Positions 4,760-61,247 of a stretch of DNA of 64,000 nt are shown piece by piece. The notes under the pieces were generated by a model. The model saw only the letters and a program-made list of their open reading frames with translations. It did no database searches and had not been told where the DNA came from. Source of the DNA: Eledone cirrhosa (taxonomy: Eukaryota). A program made the position numbers and the translations under genes. How positions within the stretch are numbered: position 1 is the stretch's first letter; each line of letters begins with the position of its first letter. The stretch lies in contig OZ024745.1 of assembly GCA_964016885.1 (NCBI GenBank), positions 118,730,001-118,794,000 on the forward strand, given 5' to 3'.

Positions 4760-4883
4760 TTAAAATAGGCTTGTTAATTCAAATGTTTTATAGTATTTTT
4801 ACTAGAGGAAAGATCATTGTAAAAATTTGCACTAAATTAAAGTAAAGACTTCAATATTTAATGTTATGCAGTGCTGTTTGGTA

Positions 4884-7250
4884 TTTTTCAAGTCAGTTAA
4901 GCTTCCTGAGATCCCACTACATTTCTTGTGTACCCATTGTTTGCATTTGGGGCAGAGAATGGAGTTCCTACCTACACCTTTCCTACATACTGAGCAAGGC
5001 CATTTCCCTGAGGGGATCTGGGTTCTGTTTTCTCATCTACTTACAAGGACCTTAGTCTTTGTCAGGTTGACTTTGAGACCCTTTCTTTCGAGTCCCTGCT
5101 TCCAAGTTTGGAATTTCTTCTCTAGTTCTACCATAGATTCAGCTATAAGTGCGAGGTCAGCTGCATACAGGAATTCCCATGGGCATCCGGTCTTAAACTC
5201 CTCCGTTATTGCCTGCAAAACTATGATGAACAGGAGAGAGCTAAGAACAGAGCCCTGGTGAACACCAACCTATATGCTAAATTCCTCGCTATAGTCATTG
5301 CTAATCCTAACTTTGCTGACTGCTCCCCTATACATGGCTTGTACTGCTTTCACAAGCCATTCATCTACTCCTAGTTTTCTAAGAGCCCACCAGATTATAG
5401 CACAGGGAACTCTGTCAAAGGCTTTCTCGAGATCGACGAATGCCAGGTAGAGCGGCTTACTTTTAGCTAGGTATTTTTCCTGTAACTGCTTCCCAAGGAA
5501 GAGAGCATCAGTGGTGCCTCTTCCTGGCACAAACCCAAATTGCATCTCATCTAGTTTCACCCGGTCCCTAATCAACTGTGCTATAACTCTTTCTGTTACT
5601 TTCATGACCTGGTCCATCAGCTTTATACCTCTATAGTTTCCTCTATCTAGTGCATCACCTTTACCCTTGTAGCAGTTGACAATGATGCTGCTGCACCAAT
5701 CCTTTGGTATGACACCTAGTATTACCTGGTTAACAATATGTGTGGTTATGGTGTGACCTACCGACGCAGATGCCTTCGGCATCTCGGCAGCTATACCCGA
5801 TGGGCCGGTTGCCTTCCCCGTCTACATATTTTTGATTGCCTTACTTACTACGCTGCTGCTGACTTGTACTGCTGGCCCCTCTATAGGGTCTACTTGGTGT
5901 AGGGTCTCTTCTTCCCATGCATTCTCCTCATTTAGTAATTTTCATAATGGCTCTTCCACGCATTTTTCTTCTCAGCACTTGTGAGGGCAAGCTCACCTTT
6001 ATCATTCCGGATACACTTCTCTCCAATGACATCACAATTCTCTCTGACACACTGCCTCACAATCTTGAACACCCCCTGTTTCTGGTCCTCACATTGCAAA
6101 ACATGCTTGAATTTTCTATACTCCGCTTCCCTTCTAGCTAAGTATACTTGTCGCCTAGCTGCCCTCCTGGTCGCTATGTAATGTACCCTGCTTCCTCCGT
6201 TTTCCATTCTTTCCATGCCTTTCTCTTGGCCTTAACTACCTCATCTACCTTATTGTTCCACCACCAAGTCATTCTCCTCCTGCCTGTGGTCTTACTCCAG
6301 CCACAGATCTCATCCGTTGCCTTTAGTAAGTTATTTTTTGGGAACTGCCAGTGCTCTTCTACACCGAATGTCTCTCTATCTGTTCTTATTTACTGTCATA
6401 GGCGTTGAGTAAAATATCTTTAAATCTGTTACTGGCTGAGGGGTCTTTCAGCTTCCAGATCTTTCTTCTCCAGGTTGGCTTCTGTTTCCAGGTTCATCTA
6501 GTTCTGACTGTGAGGTCGCTGACAACTAAGTTATGTTGGGAGGTACATTCTTTACTAGAGAAGGCTTTTGTGTTTACGACCGTCCATCTGTCACGTCCTC
6601 TGATGAGGATAAAATCTATCTGACTAGAATGCTCCCCTGATCTATAGGTGATCAGATGGTTGTCGGGTTTTTTGTAGTTTGTGTTACATTTCGACATGTC
6701 ATTGGCATCACAGAATTCTAGAAGCCTGAGGCCTTCTTCATTTCTTGTGTCAACCCTGTGGCCTCCATGGACTCTATAGAAGCCGTCACAGTGTTTACAT
6801 ACATGTCCGTTAAAATCTCCTGCAATGATTAGGAAGTCATTGTCGTTTGTTAGAGTAGTAGTGTGCATTAGGGACTTGTAAAACCTATCTTTAAGTTCGT
6901 CTGGCAACCCCGATTGGGGTGCGTAAGCTGATATTATTGTGGTAATTGTTTTATTCAGGACTAGTCTGAGTTTAATGATTCTTGCATTCACCCTGTTCAC
7001 TGAGATTACCGTATCTACCTATTTGTCAGCTAGTAGGATACTTACACCACCCATCCCATCGTCATTTCCCACCCAGAAATATTTGTAGCACTGACTTTTC
7101 CCTACAAGGACTCTAGCAGACTCTCCTCTCCATCTAGTCTCTTGCACACAGCATACATCAATTTCCTTTCGCTCTAGCATCTCTACAATTTCTCCTGCTC
7201 TTCCTTTCATTGTGCTTACATTGATGGTTCCAACTCGGAGTTTTGGGCAT
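4884..7250 (-). mobile_element. RTE-clade LINE, decayed: APE endonuclease, reverse transcriptase and Cys/His finger; 3' truncated
   Basis: APE motifs 'GTINVSTM', 'CVQETRW', 'AYAPQ', 'GDFNGHV' and 'QIDFIL'. RT motifs 'NYRGIKL', 'QFGFVPGRGTTDA', 'FVDLEKAFDRVP' and 'LYAADLAL'. Multiple stops and frameshifts. Confidence 0.95.
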
Positions 7251-11252: not shown

Positions 11253-11333
<81 letters not shown>

Positions 11334-11519
11334 TAGAAGTTGTATTTAATTTGTTGGAAGTCCGACAAACATAAATGTTTATAACTGATTTAGAGCACTC
11401 AGCAGATTAATGGAGTAAATATTCAATGATATTAAATAAATGGAAACTATATCCAGTGAATTTCCAACCGATAAGGTATGATTTTCATGGGTACGTCTCT
11501 ATTTATAAAACAAACTTTG

Positions 11520-11585
11520 TATTTTATCTGATGAAAGCGTACCAATGTTGTCTTGGTTTGCTCTTGAAATATATATAATAAAATA
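11520..11585 (+). ncRNA. Type I hammerhead ribozyme motif (family A)
   Basis: tattttat-CTGATGA-aagcgtaccaa..ttggtttgctctt-GAAA-tatata-TA-ataaaata: 8-bp stem I, stem II, palindromic stem III and an AUA triplet. Confidence 0.8.
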
Positions 11586-12182
11586 AATATGGTTTTATAA
11601 ATATAGTTTCCATTTATTTAATAATATCATTGATTATATATATATACACACACACACGTTTATATATATATACGTTTATATTAAATTTATTAATATTTCC
11701 TAAAGATTATTTATTTTCCACGTAGATCTGTTACAAATTCTTCAGTTTAACTGACATGTACATATAGTGAAGAGAGAGAGAGAGAGAGAGAGAGGTGAGG
11801 AAGTGAGAGGGGGAGAAAGAGGGAGATAGAGAGAAGAAACCAATAACAGCCATGGGTGGAATTGTTAACACATTAGAAAAAGGGAGAAAAAGGAATCTAA
11901 AGAGTCACAAACTGAAAATACAGAAATATTTGCCAGAAATTCTATCGTAGTCGAAACAACATACAGTATGTATGTATATATATATATAAGTTTATCCCGA
12001 CTTCAATCGGGGGTAACCACAATAAGTAAGGTACTCAATAGATAGAGTATAAATATTTGATATGGAAATGGTTTCTACAGGACTAGAACTGTTTCATTCT
12101 GGAAAATGATTTCTTCCGAATGAAACAGTTCTAGTCCTGTAGAAGCCATTTCTATATGAAATATATATATACACACATATAT

Positions 12183-12728: not shown

Positions 12729-12931
12729 AAACTAACACATGTGATATGTATGTATATATATAATGGTTTCTTATATAGGCACAAGGCCAGCAATTTGGGG
12801 AGAGGAGAAGTCGATTAAATCGACCCCAATGAGTGGCTGGTACTTTATTTTATCGACCCCGTAAGGATGAAAGGCAAAGTTAACCTAGGCGGGATATAAT
12901 GGTACACTAACACATGTAATATGCATATATC

Positions 12932-12995
<64 letters not shown>

Positions 12996-13377
12996 CAGTT
13001 GATGAAAGTTGGTTGATCAAAAATCTGCTGCCCTTTTCGTAAACAGGGATGAAGTACTCAATGATTTGTATTCCTGATGTATCATCCGGCGTTTTTGTAT
13101 AATAAATAAGAGAGACGGTTTTATTCGTACATCGTCAATTTATTACCTAATTTCATTATAACGAAGATGTACGAATAAAACTGTCTCCCTTATTTATTAT
13201 ATATATATATATATATATATATAACGAAGGAAATGTGGTAAGGAACCAGGTGGACCATAACGCACCAAAGTACTCAATACTTAGGGTAGTAGAGTGGGTA
13301 ATAGGAACGAGTAGGACCCCGACGGCTGAGCTCAAGCTGTTTCTGGTCCAGAATTAGCCGTCGGGGTCCTACTCGTT

Positions 13378-13420
<43 letters not shown>

Positions 13421-13459
13421 ATATTAAATAAGTGGAAACTATATTTATAAAACCTTATT

Positions 13460-13521
13460 TATTCTATTATATATATTTCAAGGGTACCAAAAACTTTGGT
13501 ACGCTTTCATCAGATAAAATA
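13460..13521 (-). ncRNA. Type I hammerhead ribozyme motif (family A), left arm of a palindrome
   Basis: Reverse complement reads tattttat-CTGATGA-aagcgtaccaaa gtt tttggtaccctt-GAAA-tatata-TA-atagaata. Confidence 0.85.
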
Positions 13522-13568
13522 CAAAGTGTGTTTTATAAATTTTGACATAGCCAAGGAAACACACTTTG

Positions 13569-13630
13569 TATTTTATCTGATGAAAGCGTACCAAAGTTTT
13601 TGCTACCCTTGAAATATATATAATAGAATA
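13569..13630 (+). ncRNA. Type I hammerhead ribozyme motif (family A), right arm of a palindrome
   Basis: CTGATGA at 13577, GAAA at 13611, stem I tattttat/atagaata. Confidence 0.8.
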
Positions 13631-13669
13631 AATATGGTTTTATAAATATAGTTTCTATTTATTTAATAT

Positions 13670-13726
<57 letters not shown>

Positions 13727-16700
13727 ACACTCACTAAGCGTGAAACTAATACTATTTGTAACATGTACTCCTGCGTTGTCTGTTTTTTGTATTCCGAACT
13801 ATATATAAACACGTTAGAGTCTTACAAATAGAGAATTGCAACAGTTAAAAACTTACGAGATTATTTTAACAAATCAATCAATCAATCGCGTTCCCGCAAC
13901 TGTTGTATCCAGTCGATTACACACACGTGTGTATGTAGTATATACGTAAATGTATGTGTATACACACACACACGAAGGGTTCGGGACCCCAACGGCTTAG
14001 CTCCTGTCGTTTTCAACAGCTAGATCTAGCTGTTGAAACTGTAGGACCTCAGCCGTCGGGGGCACCCGAATCCTATATATTACCCACTCTACTACCCCAA
14101 GTATCGAGTACCCAGGGGAGAAATGGTCTAACTGGTTTTTACTGCATCCATGGAGTAGTAGTATGGGTATATATCTATCTATCTATCTATCTATAGGTAT
14201 ATATATATGAGAGAGTAGTAGAATGGGTATATATATATGAGAGTAGTAGAGTGGGTATATATATTATATATATGAGAGAGAGGGGGGGGGGGGCATTATA
14301 TACGCCAAACCCGCAGCCAGGTTTTCTGCCAGGTAATGCCATTCGAATATATGTTAAAACATGGGGATGCCAAAACAAAATAAAGAAATATTGTTTAGTA
14401 AAATATATATATTATTCTTGTTTGATGGGGATGCCAAAACTAAATTTGCTTGTGATAGGAGATGCCGGGCATCCCCTGGCATCCCCTTGGCTACGGGCCT
14501 GATATACGCACATATAAAGCATGTAAGTGTATAGAAAAGAGAAGCGGGTGTAGAGGCTGGCAGACGAAATGAAACAATGTCAATGGAACAATTTTGCATT
14601 AGACATGAAATAATTGTTTCTACTTTTGGCACAAGGCCAGCTATTTCCCCAGTGTATTACTGTTACGGTGTCATTCCCCCAATTGGCTGCTTTTTTTTAT
14701 TCATTTATTTTTTTCTTCCTAACTTACACGTAGGAAAAAGTTGTTTACGTTAGAATAAAGACGAAAGATGTGAACAAATAACTTTCTCCGCGGTTTACTT
14801 ACAGAAATTAGGAACATATGGCATGGACCTCCCACAGTTTTGACGATGAGTGTTCCAGTTGTACAATCATGTAATTAATGTGTAAGTGGCTGAGCATTCT
14901 ACAGGCACGTGTATCCCTAAACGTAATCTCAGGGAGATTTACTGTGACATAATGTGTGATAAGGCGGGTCATTTGAATTACGGATACAAGGCCATCTGAC
15001 TGGCTTCGAAGCAATTTCGTCTACTCAGTTTCACTCACAAGGCATGGGTTGACTAGAGGCTATGTATGGTAAATGACACATTACCAAGATGCCACGCAAT
15101 GGAATCAAACCAGGGACCCAATGATTGCGAAGCGAAATTCTTACCAATTAGATCATACTGATTGCACTAGGATCATGTGAATTAATAGGAATTAAACCCT
15201 GACCCTTTCTAAAATATGGCATTCGTTATATCTCTGCATTGCATAATGTAAAAGGCAGCGTAAACGGTTTGGTGTGATGCTTCTGAGTTAAAATTTCCAT
15301 GAGTTTGAAATTGCCTTGCACCCGTCTAAAGTCGATAAAATAAATGGTGGGGACGATTAAAATTGATTAGTGAAAAATGCTTAGATTTGTGCTATTAAGA
15401 TCAATCCTGCCGCAAAATGTAGCTTTATGCTTATTGATAGAAATGAAGATTATATAACAGAAAGTACAATTGTTTGAGTATCGCACAAAATACGTTGTAG
15501 TTATTTGTAGCGTCTCTTTACGTTCAGAGTTCAAATCTCGCCGAGGTTTCCTTCGTTTTTCATCTTTCCGGGTTCGATAAAATAAAATATAGAGGTCGAT
15601 TTAATCGACTACTCACTACCATCAAATATCTTGCCTTGTGTCTGTATTGAATGGGAGAAAAAATACTTGTCAGCATTTATTCGTTTCAGACAACATCGAC
15701 TTAACCTTTAGTCAGTCTGGGCTCAACAAATTATGTACTAGACACGTAGTGGATTTATTAAATTGGCTACACCCATCCCTCAAACTTGCGAAAATGTATC
15801 AAAAGTGGAAATCATTATTCGTAACAGAAATATTATTAGCATATTTTCGTGAATGGGGGTCAAGTGTATCTCATGGCTGATAAGACAATATATCTTGGCT
15901 CTATTATTCAGGTCGCTGACTGAACATGTTTCAATTGCAATTTTCTCGGCAGCCCAGAGTCCCAGAATATATGACAAGCACATATTTCATACACTGGTCA
16001 AAGTATCAAGTTAGTTAAGTGATTATAAAGGAAGTAATTTTTTTTTTTTTAATAACCAACCACCACGTTTATTTTCATTTTTATTCGTAAGTATTTTTAT
16101 TATCGTTTATCTTAAAATTAATAAGGATTCAATGCAATGTGAAATTGTCATTGACAATTCATATTGTGACCTGAATAAAAAAAAACAACATTGTCAAATT
16201 AGTCAAATTCTTTCAGGTTGAGACAGTCACTCATAATTGACCAAATAGGGCGGTGGGTTGGCAGTATCGGTAGAACGTCCTACAAAATGTTTTGTTACAT
16301 TTTAGTTAGAGTCCTTTATGCTCTGAGTTCTAATATTTTGAAGGTCAGCTTGCCTTCCATCCTTCCAAGATTGATATAATAAAGTACCAGTAAAGTCGAT
16401 ATATTAGACTTTCCCTCTCCCACACAATTACTGGCCTTGTGTCTATATTAGAAACAATTATTGAATTAAAGGCTGCTTGAGTGACCGCATTAGATAAAAA
16501 ACAAAAATGTTTTGCGGTATTTAGTTACGACTTTCTACGTTCTGAGTTCAAATCCCGCCTTTCACTCTTCTGGGGTCGATAAAATAAAGTATCAGTTAAG
16601 TACTGGTGCCGATATAATCGACTTTCCCCTTCCTTCAAATGGTTGGCCCTGTGCTAATTTTTAAAATAATTATTAACTGACAATTCCGTTAAAGCATCTG

Positions 16701-19160: not shown

Positions 19161-19356
19161 AAGATGGCGTAGAACAAAGGAGAGGCACAAAAAACAAAGA
19201 AAAGAACCCCCAGTTACTGAAGAGGTCACAGAATGTGTGACGAAAGAACTTTGACAACATATAAACAACCATCTGGTTGTGGAACCAACCAACCAACTGG
19301 AAATTTATAAATTTATAATAAATTGAAGTGAAAGCAACTGGTGCGTGTGTTTCTTA
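19161..19356 (+). mobile_element. Solo 3' pseudo-LTR of the Penelope-like element at 59341-61056, with an HHR variant at 19213-19255
   Basis: Near-identical reverse complement of ~59352-59577; gtta-CTGAAGA-g-gtcaca gaatg tgtgac-GAAA-gaac-TT-tgac. Confidence 0.8.
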
Positions 19357-19596
19357 TATATATATTTATATATATAATTAAGTTAAAAATGTACATCTAC
19401 ATATGCATACTGAAATACTAGTATGCATATGAATACACACACGTATACATATGTAGATGTACCAAGTCTTTCACTGGTTACTTTACTGTGAGTATCCAGC
19501 TATTCTGTATGTAAACACACAGACAAACCGGTTTTTAGAGTCATACTGGTTTTTGAGGAAACACCTTTCCTCTATTCTCCAGAAAGCCAGACAAGG

Positions 19597-19641
19597 AATA
19601 TTGAACTAGTTTCGTTGTTGTTACAACTCATCAGCAATATT
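19597..19641 (-). ncRNA. Type I minimal hammerhead ribozyme (inverted arm)
   Basis: Exact reverse complement of 20133-20177. Confidence 0.9.
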
Positions 19642-20132
19642 TACCTATCTACCGGCCTTTCTGGAGAATCGTAAAAGCACATATCGTTATATGCTTTTTC
19701 TATGAAAATTAGTAGTGGGCAGACTAATTTGCATAGAGTGTGAGTACGTACCGGTTCAACGGAGACGATAAAAACAAATAACGAAACGTGTGTTTACATA
19801 CAGAATAGCTGGATACTCACAATAAAGTAACCAGTGAAAGACTTGGTACATCTACATATGTATACGTGTGTGTATTCATATGCATACTAGTATTTCAGTA
19901 TGCATATGTAGATGTACATTTTTAACTTAATTGTTTAAGCGTCAGTCATACAAAAGTGAGTTACAAACGAAACGAAATTTAATTTCGTTTCGTTATTTGT
20001 TTTTATCGTCTCCGTTGAACCGGTATGTACTCACACTCTATGCAAATTAGTCTGCCCACTACTAATTTTCATAGAAAAAGCATATAACGATATGTGCTTT
20101 TACGATTCTCCAGAAAGGCCGGTAGATAGGTA

Positions 20133-20177
20133 AATATTGCTGATGAGTTGTAACAACAACGAAACTAGTTCAATATT
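20133..20177 (+). ncRNA. Type I minimal hammerhead ribozyme
   Basis: aatattg-CTGATGA-gttg taacaa caac-GAAA-ctag-TT-caatatt: perfect 7-bp stem I, 4-bp stem II, palindromic ACTAGT stem III, GUU triplet (predicted cut after 20170). Confidence 0.9.
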
Positions 20178-20554
20178 CCTTGTCTGGCTTTCTGGAGAAT
20201 AGAGGAAAGGTGTTTCCTCAAAAACCAGTATGACTCTAAAAACCGGTTTGTCTGTGTGTTTACATACAGAATAGCTGGATACTCACAGTAAAGTAACCAG
20301 TGAAAGACTTGGTACATCTACATATGTATACGTGTGTGTATTCATATGCATACTAGTATTTCAGTATGCATATGTAGATGTACATTTTTAACTTAATTGT
20401 TTAAGCGTCAGTCATACAAAAGTGAGTTACAAACGAAACGAAATTTAATTTCGTTTCGTTATTTGTTTTTATATATATATATATAAATATATATATTTAA
20501 ATTTCGTTTCTGAATTTGTTTAGCAAGATTATTTATCTGAAATCTTTGGGAGGG

Positions 20555-20656
20555 TCATGTTGCCAATAAGAAACACACGCACCAGTTGCTTTCACTTCAA
20601 TTTATTATATATTTATAAATTTATAAATTTACAAATCTACAAATTTCTGGTTGGTT
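20555..20656 (-). mobile_element. 3' terminus of the same Penelope pseudo-LTR, running into the gap
   Basis: 'tcatgttgccaataagaaacacacgcaccagttgctttcac' is identical to 59341 onward. Confidence 0.8.
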
Positions 20657-20856
20657 NNNNNNNNNNNNNNNNNNNNNNNNNNNNNNNNNNNNNNNNNNNN
20701 NNNNNNNNNNNNNNNNNNNNNNNNNNNNNNNNNNNNNNNNNNNNNNNNNNNNNNNNNNNNNNNNNNNNNNNNNNNNNNNNNNNNNNNNNNNNNNNNNNNN
20801 NNNNNNNNNNNNNNNNNNNNNNNNNNNNNNNNNNNNNNNNNNNNNNNNNNNNNNNN
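20657..20856. other. Assembly gap (200 N)
   Basis: Run of N. Confidence 1.
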
Positions 20857-20864
20857 GACCTGAC

Positions 20865-21212
20865 ATATATACATATATATATACATACATATATACATAC
20901 ATATACATATATATATATACATATACACATATACATATACATACATATATACATACATACATACATACATACATACATGTATATACATACATACATACAT
21001 ACATACATATACATACATATATGTATATACATACATACATATATATACATACATATATACATATATATACATACATACATATATATATATATATACATAC
21101 ACATACATATATACATATATACATATACATACATATATATACATATATATATATATATACATATACACATATACACATACATATATATACATATACACAC
21201 ATACACATATAC

Positions 21213-21247
<35 letters not shown>

Positions 21248-21444
21248 CATATATATATACATATATATATATACATACATATATACATATACACACATAC
21301 ACATATACATATATATATACATACATATACACATATACATACATATATATATATACATATACATATACATATACATACATATACATATACATATATACAC
21401 ATATATACATATATATATATATATACACATACATATACATATAC

Positions 21445-21493
<49 letters not shown>

Positions 21494-21498
21494 CATAT

Positions 21499-21547
<49 letters not shown>

Positions 21548-21660
21548 CATATATATATACACATATATATATACATATACATACATATATATATACATAT
21601 ATATATATATACATACATATATATATACATATATATATACATATATATATATATACATAC

Positions 21661-21691
<31 letters not shown>

Positions 21692-21758
21692 CATACATAC
21701 ATATATATATATATATACATACATATATATATATATATACATACATATATATATATAT

Positions 21759-21789
<31 letters not shown>

Positions 21790-21844
21790 CACACATATAT
21801 ATATATATATACATACATACATACATACATATACATACATACAC

Positions 21845-21877
<33 letters not shown>

Positions 21878-22222
21878 CACATATATATATATATATATAC
21901 ATACATACATACACATATATACATATACATACATATATATATATACATATACATACATACATACACATATATACATATACATATATATATACACATATAT
22001 ACATACATACATATATATACACATACATACACATACACATATATATATACATACATACACACATATATATATACATACATATATATATACATATACATAT
22101 ATATATATATATATATATACATACATACATATACATACATACATATATATATATACATACATATATATATATATATACATACATACATACACATATATAT
22201 ATACATACATATATACATATAT

Positions 22223-22267
<45 letters not shown>

Positions 22268-22492
22268 CATATATATACATATACATACATATATATATAT
22301 ATATATATACATACATATATATATATACATACATATATATATATATATATATACATACATATATATATATATACATACATACATATATATATATACATAC
22401 ATACATATATATATACATACATATATATATATATATATATACATACATACATATATATATACATACATATATATATATATATATATACATAC

Positions 22493-22535
<43 letters not shown>

Positions 22536-22554
22536 TATATATATATATATACAC

Positions 22555-22641
<87 letters not shown>

Positions 22642-22652
22642 CATATATATAC

Positions 22653-22685
<33 letters not shown>

Positions 22686-22824
22686 CATATATATATACAT
22701 ATATACACACATATATATATATACATACATATATATACATATATACATACATATATACATATACATATACATATACATATATATATACATATATATATAC
22801 ATATATATATACATATATATATAC

Positions 22825-22875
<51 letters not shown>

Positions 22876-22876
22876 C

Positions 22877-22921
<45 letters not shown>

Positions 22922-23234
22922 TACATATATATATACATATATATATACATATATATATACATATATACATACATATATATATACATATATATATACATAT
23001 ATATATACATATATACATATACACACATACATACATATACATATACATACACATATACATACATATATACATATATATATACATACATATATACATACAC
23101 ACATATATATACATATACATACATATATACATATACATATATATATATATATATATACATATATATATACATATATACACATATATACACACACACATAC
23201 ATATATATATACACATATACATATATATACATAC

Positions 23235-23271
<37 letters not shown>

Positions 23272-23320
23272 TATATACATATATATATACATATATATAC
23301 ACATATACATACACATATAC

Positions 23321-23358
<38 letters not shown>

Positions 23359-23459
23359 ATACATATATATATATATATATACATATATATATACATATAT
23401 ATATATACATATATATATACATACACATATACACATATATATACATATACACATACATA

Positions 23460-23493
<34 letters not shown>

Positions 23494-23508
23494 CACATAT
23501 ACATATAC

Positions 23509-23539
<31 letters not shown>

Positions 23540-23580
23540 CATACATATATATATATACATATATATACATATATATATAT
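20865..23580. repeat. Giant compound (TA)n/(TACA)n microsatellite, ~2.7 kb
   Basis: Only TA/CA dinucleotides; source of the spurious ~1000-aa YI/HI ORFs. Confidence 0.95.
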
Positions 23581-24030
23581 GGTGGCTGCCAACTCGTTTT
23601 CGAGTACGGCCACTACTTTATATCCATGTAGGAGAACCCCTACTGATGCGCTGAACGAGTGTGACTTTTTAGTCCAGCCAGCGACTTGAAAGCTCTGGTA
23701 CAAACACTACACTTGTGACAATTATTGACACATAGTGCTGGGCCATGGTACCATGTGACGACAAATGCAGAGAGATCTCCAGATACAAAGCAATGCCTGT
23801 GCCGTGAAGCTTTTATAGTGAGCAAAGGCACTGCACAATGCCAGTCCCACTCTCTTAACCAAGATGATATTTACCAAAAAGAAGAACAAGTCAACATCAT
23901 TGGATACCATCAGGGTTGCAGGTGTTATATCAGAGTTTTCCTTCTCCTAGAATTCCGCCTTGACAAAGGCTAAGGGGTCATCTCTCCCGGTGATTTTGGA
24001 TGGCCATTGACTCTTAAGAGCTCCTTTGCC
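23581..24030 (-). mobile_element. Non-autonomous RTE derivative, 5'-truncated copy of the 48748-49357 element
   Basis: Near-identical reverse complement of ~48905-49357; encodes the residual C2H2 finger '[22 protein letters not shown]'. Confidence 0.8.
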
Positions 24031-25498
<1,468 letters not shown>

Positions 25499-25499
25499 A

Positions 25500-27061
25500 T
25501 CTCTCTATATAAAATACTCAGTGTTTCTTTTCCTTATGCATTCCTGAACACCTTGACCAAATCAAATCAAATTTTACAAGGTATTATACTCCCGATTAAC
25601 ATGTAATTTTCATTTTATTTGGATTAAACGAATATAACACTTTATCTAAAAGACTATGCGGCAGCTGGAGAGAAATGAATCAAACATGCTCCGTTGGATT
25701 TGCAATGTCAATGTGCGTGAACGACCAAGCATAGATGAGTTGAGAAACTGTGTATAAAAGGAATAAGCTGTAGTGTGCGAGAGAGAAGACTGCGTTGGTA
25801 TGGACATGTGATGTGCATGGAGGATGACCGCTGGGTAAACAAGTGCCAAGAAATACTAATATAAGGAAGACACAGTAGAGGAAGACACAGTAGAGGAAGA
25901 CCACGAAAAACATGGGCGGAGGTGGTGAGAGCAGACCTCAGATCTCTGAAGCTCACGGAGGAGATGACAAAGGACCGTGACAAGTGGAGAGATGATGTGC
26001 TGAATAGGACCTGTCCCACCCTTGCAAGCAGGGAAAACCGGACGTAAAATGATGATGATGATGAATCAACCATATAGACAACTAAATATATAGATATTTC
26101 ATAACACCACGGCGACATCACATTTTGTATATATATATGTGTGTGTGTGTGTGTTTGTACGTTCGTTACGAACGTTAGACCTTAGTAAGCTACATACATA
26201 TCTTCACGTAAATATTTAATCAGATACACAGAGAATTAAACAGACACACATACATATGTGACGACTGACAAGTATGTGTGCGTGAGTGTGTGTGTGTGAG
26301 TATACCTACTTTTCTGTGACGACTGACATAACGAACGCTGAAGGGGGGCGCGGTAAAATATTACGTGTGTGTTTGAATGAATGTATGTCTGTGTGCGTTT
26401 TTTATAAGTTGTGTGTCTGTATGAACACACACGCACACACACACACACACACACATCTACACATACATATACATATGTAGCGACTGACAAGTATATGTGT
26501 GTAAATATATGTGTGTGAGTGTATGTGATATTATATGTGTGTGAGTAATTTGCACTGCATACAGAAATAGAGATTAATATATATTTCTTTTGGATGTTGA
26601 TACTTTACAATATTGAAATAAATGTGTCTATTCCAAAACTTCCTTTCATACCTTCAGATGTTCCATTTGAATTTAAGAGGCTTCAGTTTCCAGTCTAAGT
26701 TTTGTTATTTCAATTAACAAATCTCAGGGTCAATCCTTCAAGGTAGTTGAACTTGATCTCTCTACTACATGTTTCTCCTACGGTCAACACTATGTTGGTT
26801 GTTCACGAGTTGGAAGCAGCAACAATTTATTCATTTGGACACCAACAAAAAGTTACACAATTAATATTGTTTACCCTGGGGTGCTTCAAGATTGACAGAT
26901 TTTCATTTCTAAATTCTATTATCATTACAATTTTTATATTTTTAAAAAATAAAATATAGATATTATGAAATAATTATGAGCAAGAAAATATATCTTCGTA
27001 TTTATTGTTTACTAATCAGAATAAGAACAGTAAACCAGGCAACGCCGGGTGAGTCAGCTAG
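25500..27061 (+). mobile_element. Non-autonomous Helitron with a residual helicase C-terminus (~26620-26895), interrupted by an RTE fragment
   Basis: Translates to 'IPKLPFIPSDVPFEFKRLQFPV / ISINKSQGQSFKVVELDLSTTCFSYGQHYVGCSRVG...NIVYPGVL' (PIF1-like motifs V-VI). 3' hairpin ccaggc-aac-gccggg at 27035-27049, then CTAG|T at 27058-27061. Putative A|TC start at ~25500. Confidence 0.8.
25646..26065 (+). mobile_element. RTE LINE 3' end, 5'-truncated
   Basis: 'RERRLRWYGHVMCMEDDRWVNKC...RGRPRKTWAEVVRADL...DRDKWR' followed by a (GAT)n tail. Confidence 0.9.
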
Positions 27062-27337: not shown

Positions 27338-30300
27338 GGAAAAATTTGAACAGGGACAAAACAGAGAGGCAGTACAATAAATGTTTATTAATTTCACGCT
27401 CAGGAGAGTGGGGGGTAAGTGGGGGACGACGTTTCGGGCATAAGCCCTTCCTCGGGTGAGAAGTGTGTGGGAACAGAGTTCAAAAGGTGTGTAGGGGAGT
27501 GGTGGAGAGACATATAGCGAAAGGAAACGGTGCGAATGAAAAAAAAACAAATAAAGATAAAAAATAAAAATAAAGCATGATCAAAATACAAGGAATGAGA
27601 AAATTAAAAAATAAAGGCATGATCAAAATAAACTGAAATTAAAAGGGGGGTAAACAGGTGGTGGAAGGGTGGGGGGTGAGTAGGGGTGGTGGCGGGTGGA
27701 GTGGGGAGAGGGAGACGGGGTGTCCGAGCGGGGAGGGCTGAAGGTGGTGTGTGTGTGTAGGTGTGCGTGTGTGTGTGTGTATATGAAAGTAAGGGTTGGG
27801 GGGAAAACGGGGTTGCATGTTCAGGAAGGGGTGTGTGTGGGGGGTGTTTTTGTGGGTCGGAGTGTCTGAGCGTGTGTGGATAGGGGGTGGGGGGGAGAGG
27901 AATCAGGAGGCTGAGGGTGTAAATATGTGGTGGGAAGCACGTGTGTGTGGGGTTTAAGCGTGTTGTAGGTGTGGGTGGCGTGTGGAGAAAAAAAAATTTT
28001 TGGGGGTGTGTGTGCGGGTGAGTTATATAGGTGATTACGCAAGAAGATGGTTGAAAAGTTGGTAAGTTCCAAGGATGTTAGTAGATTGTTTGTAAGTCAA
28101 ATTCTGCGTGGGTAATCCATGAAGTGGTGGTCGGAAGAGGAGAGATGTGGGGTGCGCGCGCAACAGGAAGTGGTCAGCAGTGGGAGTGCTGTGGTCTGTT
28201 GGTGCTGGGAGTGGCCAGAAGGCACAGCAGCAGTCAGTGGAATGGTAGGGGGCGAGGATGGGTAGGTGTGAAAGTTGGAGTGAGGAGGGTGTGTGTGTGT
28301 GTGTGTGTATTAGTAGGGGTGTTAATGGGATGAGTGAGTGTGGAGCGAGGGTGTGGGTGAAGTGGGGAGAGAAGGGTGTGTGTGGTTCTATGGAGGGAGT
28401 GTGGTGTACTGGTGTGTGTATAGTTTGATGAGGAGGTGTTAGTGGGTGTTAGTATACGGGAGGTGGGGAGGGGTTGAATGCAGGTGTGAGTGGGGGTTAG
28501 TGGTGGTAGGGTGTGTAGAGTTGGTGGTGTACGAGGGTGTGTGGGTACGTGTGCGTGGGGTTGGGGGTGTTAGTGATGTTAGTTGCGTGTGGGGTGAGTG
28601 GTGTAAGTGGGTGCGTGTGTTCGTGTGCTTGGGGTTAGGGGGTGTTAGTGAGGTTAGTTGCGGGGTGGTGGGATGGAGGTGTGGGGTGAGAGGTGTGGGG
28701 TGAGAGGTGTAGGGGTGAGGGTTAGTGGTGGTAGTAGGGTGTGTGTTTAGTGTGAGCGCGTGTATGTATGTGCCGGTGGGTGTGTGTGTGTGATAAGGGG
28801 GGGGGGGGGGAGGGAAGGGATGTTAGTATGTTAGTTGGGGAAGGGTGGTCAGATGAGGGGTGGAGTGGAGGTGTTAGTATTGTTAGTGTGGGGTGGGCGG
28901 TGGAAAAGAGGGGTGTGTTAGTGGTGTTAGTGGGGGATAAGTGTGGGGGGAGGGGGGCGGTCGAACGCTAAAGGAATAAGGGTGGGGAGTTCAGGCCGGG
29001 GGAGTGTGGGTCTGTAAGATGAAGATAGTTCGTTGTTCGACCGTAAGGCGATGGGCGGGTGTTCCGTGGCACTGGAGTAGGCCACAGACTGTGAGATGGC
29101 GTGCGGAGTGTCCAGGGCCACCAAAGTGGCGGGCGATGGGGGAACTGCCCCCGAGACGAATATCCCGGAGGTGCTCCGTGACTCGGTCCGCCAGGCGACG
29201 TCCGCCAGCGAAGTCCGTAGACTAGGTTGGAGGAGGTGCAGCGGAAGGCATGCCGGACCGAGAGTGGCCGTTGGGACACTGGAAGGTGGTGGTGTTGGTG
29301 ATGTGGGGACAGGTGTTGCAGCGGGGCCTAGAACAGGGAAAGGAACCGGGGGGGGGACAGAGCGTGGGTTGGGGTGTAGGGAGCTGTGGACGAGGAGGGT
29401 ACGGAGATTGCGTGCGCGTTTGAAGGAGGGGAGTGGTGGGGTTGGGAAGATGTGGGAGGTGGAGGGGTCGGACTGGAGGCGTCGGAAGAGGCGGCGGATG
29501 GTGCGGTAGAGGGGTGGTAGGTGATGGGGAAGGGGAGACGGTGGGTGGGTGTGCGGTGGCGTGGGGTGAGGGTGGTGGAGCGGGGGACAGCACGGGCGCG
29601 GGTGAGAGCGGTGTAGACGAGAGAGGGGGGGTAACCTCTGCGGATGAAATGGCTGACTAGGGAAAGGGCTTGGGACACGAAGTCAGCATCACGGCTACAG
29701 AGGCGGCGGATCCTGAGAAGTTGGGAGTAGGGAATGGAGTGTTTAGTGTGGGTGGGGTGGGAAGAGGTGAAGTCGAGGTAAGAGTGGGAGTCGGTGGGTT
29801 TGAAGAAGGCGGAGGTGACGAGGGAGTGGTGGGAGGGGTCGAAGGCGACGGAAATGTCTAAGAAGTGGACGTGGGTGGTGGAGATAGAGGTGGTGAAGTG
29901 GAGGGAGGGGTGGAAGGAGCAGAAGAAGGAGAGAAAGGAGTCGAGCTGTTCTCGGGTGAGGGTCGTGGCTCCGATACAGTCGTCAATGTAACGACCGTAC
30001 AGTTCGGGCGTGGGGCCGGTGTACTGGGCAAAGATTTGCGCCTCAACATGGCCAACAAAAAGGTTGGCATAGTTCGGGCCCATTCTTGTGCCCATGGCTA
30101 CCCCCGTGACCTGTTGGTAAAACTCACCCGAGAAGGAGAAACAATTTAGGGTGAGGACCAGCTCGGCGAGGCGAAGGAGGGTGGGGGTGGAGGGAATGGG
30201 GGAGGGGCGAAGTTCGAGGTAGTGTTTGAGGGCGCGAAGGCCGTCGGCGTGGGGGATGACTGTATAGAGGGACTTGATGTCTAGGGTGAAGAGGAAGGGC

Positions 30301-30811
30301 TGTGGGCCGGGTAGGTAGGTGAAGGAGTCGAAAAGGCGCAGGGGCGTGGTTGGTGTCGGAGATGTGTGAGGGGAGGGTGGTGACAAGGGGGGCGAGGAGG
30401 GAGTCGAGAAAGGCGGAGATGAGTTCGGTGGGGCAGTTGCAAGCGGAGACGATGGGGCGGCCGGGGTTGTCGGGTTTGTGGAGTTTGGGGAGGAAGTAGA
30501 TGGTGGGGGTGCGGGGGATGCGGACGATGCGGTGGGGGGAGGAGGGAGGAGGCGATAAGGTCTTTGATGGTGGAGGAGACTTGTTGTTGGTAGAGGGGGT
30601 GGGATCGGAGGGTAGAGGGCGGTAAAAGAGGGGGTTACAGAGCTGCCTGAGGGCTTCGGCCTTGTAGAGGTCCGTGCGCCATACCACTACGGCGCCTCCC
30701 TTGTCCGCCGGTTTGATGACGATGTCATCTCGGCTACGGAGGGAGCGGAGAGCGAGGAGTTCGCCCCGTGAGATATTGTGCCGTTTGGAACGGTGGCGGA
30801 AGTCGAAACGA
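27335..30811 (-). mobile_element. Penelope-like retroelement (Neptune-like), decayed RT plus GIY-YIG, long 3' UTR and pseudo-LTR
   Basis: 'KPADKGGAVVVW', 'YFLPKLHKPDNPGRPIVSA', 'TLDIKSLYTVIPH', 'GVAMGTRMGPNYANLFVG' and 'RYIDDCIG'; Cys linker 'CSRPRCNTC'; 'CTSSNLVY'. The 5' end abuts (TA)n. Confidence 0.92.
27426..27457 (-). ncRNA. Degenerate Penelope-type minimal hammerhead variant in the 3' pseudo-LTR
   Basis: ac-CCGAGGA-a-gggc ttat gccc-GAAA-cg-TC-gt; core has U4->C and stem I is only 2 bp. Confidence 0.5.
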
Positions 30812-31311
30812 TAATATATATATATATACATACACACACACATATATATATACATACACATATACATATATACATACACACACACACATATACATACACA
30901 CATATACACACATATACATACACACACACATATATATATATATACATACACACACATATACATACACACACATATACATATATACATATACACACATATA
31001 CACACACACACATACACACATATACACACACACACATATATACATACACACACATATACATACACACATGCATATACACATACACACATACATATACATA
31101 CGCATATATACATATATACACACATATATATGCATATAAACACATATACATGTATGTATATACATATATATATATACATATATTTAAACATATCTATATA
31201 TATATATATATATATATATGTAGGAGGTGAGTTTTATTGTAGTACAATAAATATGTAGATTTAAAACTGCACTATCCACAAGTGTTTTTTAGCCTTCATA
31301 TCATGTTCTCC

Positions 31312-31382
31312 TGTTTTATCTGATGAAAACACAAATATTATTGCATGATGATGTTTGTTTTTGAAATGCGCATAATAAAATA
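31312..31382 (+). ncRNA. Type I hammerhead ribozyme motif (family B) within a ~200-bp TA-flanked element (31220-31420)
   Basis: tgttttat-CTGATGA-aaacacaaatattatt..gatgatgtttgttttt-GAAA-tgcgca-TA-ataaaata. Confidence 0.85.
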
Positions 31383-31417
31383 CATGGAACTCCTTTAACC
31401 ATCTTTTGATCTTATAT

Positions 31418-31495
<78 letters not shown>

Positions 31496-33374: not shown

Positions 33375-33587
33375 TATATAGTGTATTTTGCAATACACTG
33401 CATGCTTAATTAAAAGCATTTCGAAGACCTTACGCTATTGTTTTAGAGTAGTGACAGTCTCACTTACTTTAAATTTTCAGCCTAAAAATTTAAAGTAAGT
33501 GAGACTGTCACTACTCTAAAACAATAGCGTAAGGTCTTCGAAATGCTTTTAATTAAGCATGCTGTGTATTGTAAAATACACTATATA
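33375..33587. repeat. Near-perfect inverted repeat, ~103-bp arms with a 7-nt loop
   Basis: 33375-33477 pairs with 33485-33587, two mismatches seen; set in (TA)n. Confidence 0.9.
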
Positions 33588-33628: not shown

Positions 33629-33679
<51 letters not shown>

Positions 33680-33712
33680 AAGAAATTAAAAGATGGTTAA
33701 GAAAGTTCCATG

Positions 33713-33783
33713 TATTTTATTATGCGCATTTCTAAAACAAATATCATCCTAGGACGATATTTACGTTCTCATCAGATAAAATA
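33713..33783 (-). ncRNA. Type I hammerhead ribozyme motif (family B, divergent copy)
   Basis: Reverse complement reads tattttat-CTGATGA-gaacgtaaatatcgtcc ta ggatgatatttgtttta-GAAA-tgcgca-TA-ataaaata. Confidence 0.8.
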
Positions 33784-33843
33784 GGGAAACATGATATGAT
33801 GCCTAAAAAACACTTGTGAACAAAGAAGTGTCCAGTTAACATA

Positions 33844-43039: not shown

Positions 43040-43622
43040 CGTCAAATCGGACCGAGGGAACAATGTTTCCGTTGGTCTTTCCAATTGCTAATACTATCTA
43101 TCGGTCGCAACTCCAGGTAGAAGGAGCAACGTGAAATAAAGTGTCTTGCTCAAGGACATAACACATCGCCTGGTCCAGGAATCGAACTCACAAACTTACG
43201 ATTGCGAATCCAATTCTCTAACCACTCAGCCACACGCCTATATATATATATATATACAAGGATATTAAATAAATGGAAACTATAAACTATATTTATAAAT
43301 AATAATTTGTTGAATTACCAACAAATTGAATATTCCTTCTGCTTATATATATAAGCAAAGAGTTATTTAATTTGTTGGTTATTCAACAAATTTATTTATA
43401 ACATATATATATATATAACATATTTATATACATATATGTTTTGCATGTATGAATCAAATCGGACCGAGGAAACAACGTTTCCATTGGTCTTTCCAGGCAG
43501 AAGGAGCAACGTAAAATAAAATGTCTTGTTCAAGGACATAACGCATCACCCGTTCTTCTGGGAATCGAACTCACAACCGCACGATTGCGAATCAAATTCT
43601 CTAACCACTCAGCCACACGCCG
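43040..43622 (-). mobile_element. Two SINE copies (43040-43240 and 43455-43622), with a head related to the SINE at 1-120
   Basis: 'gtgtcttgctcaaggacataac...ggaatcgaactcac...ttctctaaccactcagccacacgcc' occurs twice. Confidence 0.75.
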
Positions 43623-43731: not shown

Positions 43732-43933
43732 TACATGCAAAACATATATATGTTATAAATATATATATATATTTGTATATGTATATATATACATATATAG
43801 ATAGATTTCTTTCTTAGCCACAAGGGCTATATGTATATATGTATATATAGAAATATATGTGTGAATGAAGTAATTCCATCGGAAAAGTCCAGGAAAAAAG
43901 AGTGCTCTATGTAGGCAACAGAGCTTAATTATT

Positions 43934-44064
43934 ATTATTATTATGTAATAAACAACATAAGGCAATTATTCCATTTACCAGTGGTTTCTTAAAAGCAAAA
44001 GGTTTTTAAGAAACCACTGGTAAATGGAATAATTGCCTTATGTTGTTTATTACATAATAATAAT
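43934..44064. repeat. Fold-back inverted repeat of the 3' half of an HHR element
   Basis: About 60-bp perfect arms; each reads GAAA-ccactgg-TA-aatggaataatt..., homologous to 51252-51298. Confidence 0.85.
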
Positions 44065-44074
44065 ATATAGAAAT

Positions 44075-47377: not shown

Positions 47378-48313
47378 TCGTTACTTATAACACGACTGTG
47401 TTCGAAACTCGAGAATAAGTAGGAACATGTTTTCAATACCATATTTAAGATAAAAGCGCTTCCTCATACTCACAATATCACTCCCCACCCTCGTATATAT
47501 AATGCTTTATCTGTACCCTCCCCCACCTCGCTCACTCTCTCTGTGGATATATATATGTGTGTGTGTGTGTGTGTATGCATGTATATATATAAACGCATAC
47601 ACACATACAAATACACAGACATTCAATCACTGAATGAAATCATAAATCATTTTTCTCTCACTGTTAGGTAAGAATCTCCCACCACCACCCCTTACTCCAT
47701 TATCTCTCACTTTCCGGGTTTAGGTTCTCGATTGTCAGTTTTACATAATCCAGTGTTTGGTGGGGTTGGTATGATGGCGCGTAGCTTAGTGGTTAGGCTG
47801 TTCATCTCACAGTCGTAAGATCCTGAGTTCGATTCTTGCCAACACCTGTCTTTCTTATTTCACGTTACCCCAGTTTACTCTTCTTCTTTTACGCCATCTT
47901 AGTTCTGGGAGCAAAGTCCCCAAGCATTCCTTCCAGCGGGTCCTTGTCAGAAGCAACCGTCTTCAATTGATCTGATCGGATGCTCAAGCGAGAGCAGCTC
48001 AACTCATGAATGTTATTCAACCATCTTGATCGGGAGTTTCCTTGGCAAAAATGAATTATGCCTGAAATTCAAAGGATCAGTTTCAAGCTGGCTCTCCCTG
48101 AGAACTCCGCTTGAGGAGATTTTTCAAATATTTCACTATGTTTTAAATTGCCTTGTCTGACGAACGAATGCGGACCTTTCTTGTATCCGTCTTATTCGGG
48201 AAACCTCTGGTAATGAGGTAATTATATTGTATTGTTTATTATACATTAAATATTTAGCTCTGTAACTTACATAGAGCACTCTTCATTCCTCTGACTTTAT
48301 CAACGGAAACTTC

Positions 48314-48388
<75 letters not shown>

Positions 48389-48432
48389 TAATTCAAAATA
48401 TTAACAAAAATAGACATTCGTGTGATCAAGTA

Positions 48433-48499
48433 TATTTTATTATACATATTTCAGAGGTACTGAGCTATCTTCAACAGTACGTCCTCATCAGATAAAATA
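48433..48499 (-). ncRNA. Type I hammerhead ribozyme motif (family C)
   Basis: Reverse complement reads tattttat-CTGATGA-ggacgtactg..cagtacctct-GAAA-tatgta-TA-ataaaata. Confidence 0.8.
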
Positions 48500-48551
48500 A
48501 GATGATGCATGACATACCCTGACTAAGTAGATGGTTAAAATTCAGCCATGA

Positions 48552-48602
<51 letters not shown>

Positions 48603-49518: not shown

Positions 49519-49892
49519 TGTGGCAGTATCGGTAGAGGGTTGGACGCCATGCTTTCTAGCATAGTTACGTCCCTTTACAGTCTGAGTTCAAATCCCGCCG
49601 AGATTAACTTTGCCTTTCATCCTTACGGGGTCGATAAAATAAAGTACCAGTAATGTACTGGATAATTGCTGACCTTGTACCTAAAGTAGAAACAATTATT
49701 TCTCTTGGATTGGCAGTATCGGTAGAGGGTCGGACGTCATGCTTTCCAGCATAGTTACGTCCCTTTACGATCTGAGTTCAAATCCCGCCGAGGTTGACTT
49801 TGCCTTTCATCCTTACGGGGTCGATAAAATAAAGTACCAGTAATGAACTGGTATTTGCTGGCCTTGTGCCAAAAGTAGAAACAATTATTTCT
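49519..49892 (+). mobile_element. Head-to-tail dimer of the Meta-SINE-like family
   Basis: Two consecutive ~185-bp copies, each ending 'aaagtagaaacaattatttctct'. Confidence 0.85.
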
Positions 49893-50294
49893 CTAGACCA
49901 TGTAGCAGCAAGGAGAGCGATAAAGTTAACTTGCGAGGCTTTATAAGTACAACTTCTCTGCTTCACTTGTCTAATGTTATGTATTTATTTGATAGTGCTT
50001 ACATCAGACATCGCCCGTGATCACTGATGTACACATAGAAATATGTGCGCGAGTGTGTCTGTATGTGTCTGTATGTGTGTGTATGTATGTGTGTGTGTGT
50101 GCGCGCGCTCGTCTGTGTGTGTGTGCGCGCGCTCGTCTGTGTGTGTGTGCGCGCGCTCGTCTGTGTGTGTGTGTAAATAGAGAGGGAGGGAGAGAGAGTG
50201 AGGTGCGGGTACGTGGGCGGCAGGCGACGACTCGTGGTAGATAAATGCTTTTGATCGTTCATCCTAAGTGTTTCGTCTTTTTTCCTGTGCAACT

Positions 50295-50524: not shown

Positions 50525-50664
50525 AGTTTACACTTGGAGTAATAATAAATCAAGAAAGAAGAATGACATGGTTTGCTATACACTAAGCTATGAATAAAGC
50601 CCTTATTGTATAGCAAACCATGTCACTCTTCTTTCTTGATTTATTATTACTCCAAGTGTAAACT
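50525..50664. repeat. Inverted repeat, 58-bp arms with a 24-nt spacer
   Basis: agtttacacttgg...gctataca pairs with tgtatagc...ccaagtgtaaact, one mismatch seen. Confidence 0.85.
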
Positions 50665-50898: not shown

Positions 50899-51213
50899 CA
50901 TGCTACTGTACGTCTGTATACATATATGTATGTACGTATACATACATACTTACATTTATATATATATATATATATATATGAAGTATTTCCGTCGGAAAGG
51001 TACATGAAAAAAGAGTGCTCTATGTAGGCTACAGAGCTTATTAGTAGTTGAGTGTGTGTATGTTTATGTTCTGGATATTTATTTTATATATATATATATA
51101 TTTTATATTTTTTTCCCCTAATTTCCTTTTCGTCCGTTTTTTTCATCCTCACTTTCATATTTCCTAAATTTTGTTTTCAAATCCATATTTAATAAAAACA
51201 CCATGTTATTTAT

Positions 51214-51270
51214 TCATTCTGACGACTGACGACAGGCACATCTGCCTTCAAGAAACCACTTGTAAATGAA
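51214..51270 (+). ncRNA. Degenerate hammerhead motif (family D)
   Basis: ttcatt-CTGACGA-(ctgacgac)aggca catc tgcct tcaa-GAAA-ccacttg-TA-aatgaa; the core heptamer is locally duplicated. Confidence 0.55.
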
Positions 51271-51796: not shown

Positions 51797-52002
51797 AACG
51801 AAGGAGATGTGGTAAGGAACCAAGTGGACCATAACGCACCAAAGTACTCAATACTTAGGGTAGTAGAGTGGGTAATAGGAACGAGTAAGACCCCGACGGC
51901 TGAGCTCAAGACGTTTCGACGGCTAATTCTGGACTAAAAATTTTAGTCCAGAATTAGCCGTCGAAATGGCTTGATTTCAGCCGTCGGGGTCTTACTCGTT
52001 CC

Positions 52003-53868: not shown

Positions 53869-54336
53869 ATGTGTGTATAGATAAGTATGTGTGTGCGTGT
53901 ATATATATATTTATGTGTGTGTATTTATAGATATGTATGTGTGCGTGTATATTTATATATATGTGTGCGTGTGTGTGCACCCACACAGAGATATAAACAA
54001 ACTGTCACACAGACAGACACTAACTCACAGATCAAATAAAGAGAGACGCTGCGACGTAGTTTCGATTCCAATTGCCACCCGTTTTTCTTTATCTAGGGTC
54101 TTGTTATTATGGGGTGACTGTTTACAGGTCTATTATCTGATCCCTTTTGTGTTTTCGTTTAATCCCAGATCAGACCCATGATCAAAGATTTCCAAAGTAG
54201 CGACTACCCGGCCATTTAGTTAAGACTGGTGCCTCAAACGCCTAACTCAAAGGGGCCTTTTCTTGCCAGGGGGCCAAAAGTGAGATGAGATGGTGGTACG
54301 ACGGTTTTCACCCGTTATAATTGTTTCTACTTTAGG

Positions 54337-55489: not shown

Positions 55490-55684
55490 AAGCCTTGGCA
55501 AGCTATTTAGAACACTGGTTTAACCGCTTTACTTCCCTCCGAAGAAGAGATATTATCTCGAAAATTAAGGACATTTAAATAAATCTAAGGTAAAACACTA
55601 ATTGTCAACAATATCTTTTGTATTTACATTCTTTATTCTATGTCCATACCTGCATTGTTTTGGCGTTATTATACATATACAAAC

Positions 55685-55686
<2 letters not shown>
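55490..55686 (+). mobile_element. Solo Penelope pseudo-LTR (family of 61245-62400) with an HHR variant at 55536-55570
   Basis: Reverse complement of ~61247-61414; cct-CCGAAGA-a-gagata t tatctc-GAAA-at-TA-agg. Confidence 0.75.

Positions 55687-55770
<84 letters not shown>

Positions 55771-59340: not shown

Positions 59341-59343
<3 letters not shown>

Positions 59344-61244: not shown

Positions 61245-61247
<3 letters not shown>

Follow-up and report, generated by a model that had tools for sequence, protein, structure and literature searches.

A head-to-head palindrome with hammerhead motifs on both strands in the Eledone cirrhosa genome, likely an ordinary relic of an already described PLE arrangement

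The window analyzed here is a 64,000-nt stretch of the Eledone cirrhosa genome (contig OZ024745.1). At positions 13416-13674 it holds a palindrome of 259 bases, the element proper, which lies between a left (TA)18 tract (13380-13415) and a right (TA)24.5 tract (13675-13723). The two tracts are presumably the halves of one target microsatellite. Counted with the flanking TA bases, the arms are 13414-13533 and 13557-13676 and agree at 116 of 120 nt; without these bases, 13416-13533 and 13557-13674 are identical at 114 of 118 nt. The four mismatches are found at 13487/13603, 13455/13635, 13434/13656 and 13432/13658, and the arms are separated by a spacer of 23 nt (13534-13556). Inverted arms of about 120 bp, a spacer of about 23 nt and (TA)n flanks had been described in an earlier note on this DNA, and this description was borne out. 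The left TA tract is directly adjoined by 13244-13379, a copy of a repeat family that is palindromic, extends further on one side and differs per copy in arm length (also at 13976-14137 and 51850-52002).

Each arm carries a type I hammerhead motif. A descriptor search returned exactly the two motifs that the earlier note had placed on opposite strands and pointing outward, i.e., 13460-13521 on the minus strand and 13569-13630 on the plus strand, 47 nt apart. Both consist of an 8-bp stem I, CUGAUGA, stem II, GAAA, a palindromic stem III (8 nt) and a UA cleavage site, so the CUGANGA and GAAA core, a UH cleavage site and stems I and II are present. Cleavage is predicted after 13468 in the minus motif, 52 nt from the element 3' end, and after 13622 in the plus motif. 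The type I descriptor gave nine matches in the window as compared to a mean of 0.07 and a maximum of 1 in 100 dinucleotide shuffles, counts that, as the sequences are related, are not to be read as probabilities. The claim of a complete hammerhead on each strand held at the level of the motif only. Stem II is intact in the minus copy. In the plus copy, the substitution at 13603 disrupts stem II, giving a predicted pairing of 0.01 versus 0.999 in the minus copy and a monomer fold score of −0.4 versus −7.1 kcal/mol.

For the analysis of covariation, eight related hammerheads of the window, from the two families A and B described below, were aligned. Standard pairing was found in 143 of 144 cells and a two-sided change in 6 of 18 pairs, the stem III palindrome included, both counts being based on related sequences. 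In three of the eight sequences, the 8-nt stem III stays palindromic via two compensatory changes. Shuffle excess and stem covariation show that the palindrome hammerheads are real motifs. They possess the short palindromic helix III of the dimer-dependent type. The published G10.1-C11.1 pair with a preceding bulged nucleotide, as given in the consensus of PMC4209133, is not found in the window motifs; the first stem II pair (10.1-11.1) is A-U in six of the eight, G-U in one and unpaired in one. With Rfam, no match at gathering score was obtained anywhere in the window, and none of the 60 matches that the region 12900-14200 gave up to E = 10 was to a hammerhead family. These matches were mostly to generic hairpin (miRNA) models, which are artefacts of the palindrome, and a miRNA precursor was rejected. 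A relaxed hammerhead scan, run without shuffle control, yielded 15 rows; 48146-48223 and 51213-51270, which are tied to no family, were not used.

The palindrome arm is part of a dispersed family (family A) with other loci at 11424-11632, 63764-63945 and 43256-43296. The first belongs to a head-to-head sibling on the plus strand (11333-11632), composed of a 180-nt plus copy with a hammerhead at 11520-11585, an inverted arm of 29 nt and, beyond this short arm, an extension of 91 nt. A solo copy of about 180 nt (63764-63945, plus strand) lies between TA tracts and has its hammerhead at 63840-63904. At 43256-43345 on the minus strand, a 3'-end fragment without hammerhead is joined to a 50-nt piece that is like the 11333-11423 extension. 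Five family A 3' ends stop at approximately one point and the 5' ends vary, i.e., there is 5' truncation with a fixed 3' end.

Comparison with these siblings revealed the origin of the spacer. In an ungapped comparison with the sibling upstream region, 16 of 23 positions match when the spacer is read on the minus strand and 5 of 23 when it is read on the plus strand; against the sibling at 63840 the two readings scored similarly (16 versus 13). Since the next three bases beyond the spacer also match the sibling, there is a 3-nt overlap at the junction. The spacer thus is the minus copy's own upstream sequence, which leaves two copies that differ in 5' truncation. Copy 1, a 141-nt 3' end, occupies 13416-13556 on the minus strand with its 3' end adjoining the left TA tract. 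Copy 2, a 118-nt 3' end whose truncation point lies 12 nt upstream of stem I, occupies 13557-13674 on the plus strand and adjoins the right TA tract. The head-to-head junction (13557-13559) comprises 3 nt assignable to either copy, a microhomology that by itself is weak evidence, and TA is absent from it. Element 13416-13674 is thus formed by two 5'-truncated copies of one dispersed element, which have the same 3' end and meet head to head.

Compared to the siblings, three features are diagnostic of the two arms: stem II is short, arm position 6 is C and the 3' strand of stem I is the same in both. Each arm also carries two private substitutions. These features fit one template followed by drift. 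Outside stem II, the 11508 sibling differs by four substitutions from the right arm and by eight from the left arm; because this sibling is nearly as close and siblings are few, it is not proven that both arms stem from the same RNA. Two independent insertions of near-identical copies at one site would also give a pair of opposed copies, and the window has a precedent. At 63548-63945, the outward hammerheads 63582-63652 (minus) and 63840-63904 (plus) belong to two families, have (TA)20 between them and are independent insertions that mimic a head-to-head pair. However, this pair differs in sequence and is separated by a TA tract, whereas the palindrome arms abut and share diagnostic variants, and we consider independent insertions very improbable. 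The minus-strand member at 63548-63725 is one of the family B solo hammerhead elements, which measure about 150-200 nt and lie between TA tracts (also 31221-31421, 33678-33832 and 48388-48553). Family B has stem I in common with family A, and two of its copies start at one 5' motif.

The inverted termini and TA flanks would also agree with a MITE-like DNA transposon having long terminal inverted repeats and a TA target. Against such an origin, the siblings are solo or have other arm lengths and the stems covary as RNA structure. A second copy of the palindrome was not seen among the window BLAST matches listed. MITE copies are numerous, uniform in size and fixed in their terminal inverted repeats, whereas each of the four family A loci of the window has a different layout. 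The MITE was rejected, and we attach almost no probability to it.

Three PLE coding remnants are present in the window, with motifs that were read by eye. Both 28900-30800 (minus) and 59342-61050 (minus, broken) contain RT, a CX4CxxC linker and GIY-YIG, and by their sequence motifs both appear Neptune-like according to the definition in PMC8557442. The remnant at 61247-62272 (minus) has a GIY-YIG-like end, with weak support from Atlas, in which GIY-YIG occurs in 11% of the members of one matched cluster. In 59342-61050 (type I hammerhead) and 61247-62272, hammerhead variants are located near a 3' end, and this 3' end adjoins (TA)n. Hammerhead scans found none in 28900-30800, a GC-rich and frameshifted region of unusual composition in an AT-rich genome. 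Frame 59962-60315 (minus) gave a single match, to an Octopus vulgaris RT-domain protein with 57% identity. Pfam was run on those stop-to-stop frames of the window that are non-repetitive and 45 aa or longer, 297 in total, of which four gave RT matches; GIY-YIG was unmatched, nothing was found on family A, and no host gene was identified in these frames. Two 3'-end fragments of the 59342-61050 family, 19162-19354 (plus) and 20556-20656 (minus), flank the element at 19376 that is discussed below. A broken LINE (4835-7018, minus) contains an endonuclease of the AP type and RT; a PHD-finger match comes after them.

None of the family A copies in the window is linked to a PLE ORF, and BLAST of the coding-remnant 3' ends against family A gave no match, so PLE membership of the family rests on architecture. 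The palindrome shows an inverted 5'-truncated copy at its 5' end, a hammerhead near the 3' end and (TA)n flanks. Overall, it is very probably a PLE-derived relic. A 29-nt family A motif had 0 matches in bacterial and archaeal genomes, and three family A k-mers had 0 matches in the supplement of PMC8557442, where two Octopus Naiads are included. Family A does not fit a Naiad PLE, which is expected to lack a canonical hammerhead and to have an N-terminal endonuclease, whereas family A has the full core.

PLE insertions often carry an inverted 5'-truncated copy right at the 5' end, together with tails and microsatellite or (TA)n targets, and a (TA)n target preference is described for Neptune, Naiad and Hydra (PMC8557442). 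The palindrome resembles the EN+ PLE insertions with inverted pLTR of Penelope/Poseidon, Neptune and Hydra (PMC8557442; PMC3846280) in that 5'-truncated copies are joined head to head with their 3' ends outward. The unequal arms, the hammerhead near the 3' end, the microsatellite target that hides any TSD and the apparent tails at sibling loci are also similar. In contrast to these insertions, the palindrome consists of the last 141 and 118 nt, without ORF, tandem pLTR or tail. By analogy, it would work like a minimal inverted-pLTR PLE insertion.

Cervera and De la Pena described dual hammerheads on opposite strands in Schistosoma, about 100-700 bp apart, as well as a 5'-truncated PLE with a second, opposite-strand hammerhead (PMC4209133). 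The palindrome shares with the PLEs of Schistosoma mansoni and Cotesia congregata bracovirus the close opposite-strand type I hammerheads, the truncation and the palindromic helix III. Whereas these published pairs are about 100-700 bp apart, the spacing in the palindrome is 47 nt, and its motifs differ from those in PMC4209133 by the 8-bp stem I, a long stem II with a pyrimidine mismatch and A-U instead of G-C at 10.1-11.1. Non-LTR retrozymes (PMC7229834; bioRxiv 10.64898/2026.07.22.740005) are likewise short, AT-rich and non-coding, with a type I hammerhead and a likely dependence on PLEs. However, retrozymes form tandems in head-to-tail orientation and release monomers or circles, whereas the palindrome is head to head and has one ribozyme per strand, which makes double cleavage of a single transcript impossible. 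A non-LTR retrozyme was rejected because head-to-tail tandem hammerhead units are not present at the palindrome. Family A resembles PAc, a Poseidon element of Anolis, in its AT-rich target and in an RT start that lies downstream of the hammerhead; in PAc there is overlap between hammerhead and ORF start, whereas such an ORF was not detected for family A (PMC11167929). In the giant squid, 235 hammerhead loci have been reported (PMC6962438). We found no description of octopus hammerhead-bearing PLE families in the literature, of which subscription papers were covered to a limited extent. Element 13416-13674 is likely an octopus example of an already described PLE arrangement and an ordinary relic of mobile DNA.

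The head-to-head layout recurs in the window. Five of the 14 hammerhead/PLE loci that were tested, from three families, carry a second copy of their 3' end in inverted orientation at the 5' junction; the fragment 20556-20656, which is cut by the N gap, was omitted from the test. The five, with their approximate arm lengths, are 11453 (29 nt), 13416-13674 (the palindrome, 118 nt), 19788 (413 nt), 55494 (24 nt) and 62272 (109 nt). Palindrome arm identities in the window vary (99.8%, 96.6% and 92.7%). Complete hammerheads on both strands occur at two of the five loci (13416-13674 and 19376-20472), and in the other three the inverted arm lacks a complete hammerhead. Whether the second ribozyme is kept depends on where the copy was truncated, and this speaks against the pair having been selected.

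Element 19376-20472 belongs to an unrelated family and carries back-to-back hammerheads at 19597-19641 (minus) and 20133-20177 (plus). With a 466-nt partial tandem, a 413-nt inverted copy of 99.8% identity and a 74-nt tail, and without an ORF, it is a young, textbook PLE layout. Its partial tandem pLTR at 19788-20472 has no counterpart at the palindrome locus. The GIY-YIG-coding PLE remnant is part of a head-to-head element as well (61247-62399) and has a short head-to-head sibling at 55466-55690. In both, the hammerhead core is a minimal variant, CCGAAGA.

A solo copy might also have been turned into the palindrome by a later template switch during replication or repair, which would leave at the microhomology and return in the self-complementary TA tract. 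A solo copy between TA tracts does exist (63764-63945), and microhomology and TA flanks would allow such a switch. However, recurrence of the layout at the 5' junction in three families points to the integration step, and the layout is a general PLE feature (PMC8557442). A later switch therefore seems improbable.

The loci also differ in the position of their tails. In 19376-20472 the tail sits on the long arm, whereas an apparent element tail is found on the short arm in 11333-11632, where 11333-11423 is a candidate tail of 91 nt, and in 61247-62399. The palindrome locus has no tail. Both short-arm extensions resemble sequence at other loci, with a score reached by 0 of 1000 shuffles in each of four comparisons. 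The similarity covers little sequence (E = 0.004 at about 74% across 50 nt; shared end 7-12 nt), and the extensions could be separate insertions.

We consider it fairly likely that the palindrome arose from a single round of PLE retrotransposition, with both strands of the cut target priming reverse transcription at one RNA start site. A PLE GIY-YIG/RT protein, acting in trans, would nick both strands of (TA)n. Each 3'-OH would then prime cDNA from the RNA 3' region, beginning at one start site, and both cDNAs would stop early and become joined via about 3 nt of microhomology. The four substitutions, two of them assigned to each arm, would have been added later, and the double hammerhead would be a by-product of both cDNAs passing the ribozyme. 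For the purified PAc protein, an AT-rich target, cutting and extension of both strands and the same RT start sites have been reported (PMC11167929). This Anolis PLE protein is predicted to be dimeric, and insertion does not require the hammerhead of the element, which cleaves only when the protein is present (PMC11167929).

Priming by both ends of a cut TA tract on one RNA 3' region had already been proposed in the earlier note. The arms that end at the same base, the shared diagnostic variants and the absence of TA at the junction are in agreement with this proposal, but the same arm end is predicted by a fold-back. In that case, the 141-nt cDNA (or antisense RNA) would fold via the 3-nt microhomology and copy itself, yielding the second arm. 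Such self-priming also accounts for a spacer that comes from one copy only, for the junction microhomology and for the shared variants, and Arkhipova et al. read head-to-head PLE palindromes in this way (PMC3846280). The route to inverted PLE insertions is still called open (PMC8557442). The long-arm tail of 19376-20472 fits fold-back and two-ended priming as well. On the other hand, the 3-bp fold-back is not the favored DNA fold, since cross-spacer pairing appears only once the second arm is at least 9 nt, and extension of both strands has been demonstrated in vitro (PMC11167929). The apparent short-arm tails at 11333-11632 and 61247-62399 weakly favor two primings because copying of the long cDNA cannot supply such a tail. 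Fold-back self-priming is thus credible but rather unlikely.

The RNA-level behavior of the palindrome was explored by structure prediction. The predicted transcript of the element is one hairpin of 118 bp, with perfect runs of 46, 31, 20 and 16 bp and energies of −164 (plus) and −158 (minus) kcal/mol. Its folding z-score is about −30 versus 200 shuffles. For both strands, forcing the transcript into the ribozyme fold costs a predicted 87 kcal/mol. Whichever strand is read, transcription passes through the antisense arm first. Folding of prefixes of increasing length gives 96-100% pairing of the sense arm with it once 16 nt of the sense arm have been made, at a point where stem II does not yet exist; this prefix folding describes equilibrium rather than kinetics. 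For the monomer hammerheads, unconstrained prediction gives no ribozyme fold, and in the minimum-energy fold of the dimer stem II is paired intermolecularly and stem III is not. Because both folds are off-ribozyme, folding alone does not show activity. In vitro, motifs with a short palindromic helix III had no activity as monomers and low activity as dimers (PMC4209133).

The earlier view that a transcript from either strand could fold as a ribozyme or as a hairpin is not supported by these predictions: the hairpin is favored by 87 kcal/mol, the plus stem II is damaged and the sense arm is sequestered early. A read-through transcript is predicted to form the 118-bp hairpin and not a ribozyme, and a ribozyme fold could be possible only for an RNA that starts at the junction. 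According to these models, the locus is probably catalytically silent and probably at most a passive source of dsRNA. If transcribed, the predicted hairpin would suit ADAR or Dicer. A bistable switch was rejected since no bistability is predicted and the hairpin wins on both strands.

A selected ribozyme/dsRNA switch, or conversely a fold-back artefact of the assembly, is highly improbable. The number of predicted long dsRNA loci in octopus is unusually large and hyper-editing is high (PMC5625713), which would suit a switch, and inverted PLE structures trouble assemblies (PMC8557442), which would suit an artefact. In the palindrome, however, one ribozyme is decaying, and three of the five inverted arms in the window lack a complete hammerhead. 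An artefact is countered by the four arm differences, two of them private to each arm, and by the unequal divergence of the palindromes, as is expected of real, aging DNA.

By itself, the palindrome matters little: the 64 kb contain five such junk structures, and the architecture has been published. Its value is that of a data point on a genome dense in short head-to-head relics, of which truncation points, microhomologies and tails can be counted to distinguish two-ended priming from self-priming. If transcribed, such palindromes would be ready substrates for ADAR or Dicer in an animal with extreme editing (PMC5625713). A more speculative and doubtful extension is that octopus head-to-head relics arise from two independent RNA-templated primings by a dimeric PLE complex and, across the genome, are a major source of the near-perfect dsRNA hairpins that underlie A-to-I hyper-editing in octopus. 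The two RNAs would possibly be held together via the palindromic stem III. If the dimeric-complex reading is true, a short-arm tail would settle the priming question from genome sequence alone.

Other repeats in the window were recorded as well. Five further near-perfect palindromes (12057-12160, 13102-13197, 33375-33587, 43933-44065 and 50525-50664) are flanked by microsatellites and were not matched by a hammerhead; they are possibly other PLE ends or MITEs. A 200-N assembly gap (20657-20856) is followed by a 4.6-kb degenerate AT microsatellite (20865-25511). An abundant short repeat, present as copies, tandem arrays and inverted clusters at 12760-12900, 49521-49894, 54328-54794 and 57749-58697, presumably resembles an octopus SINE.
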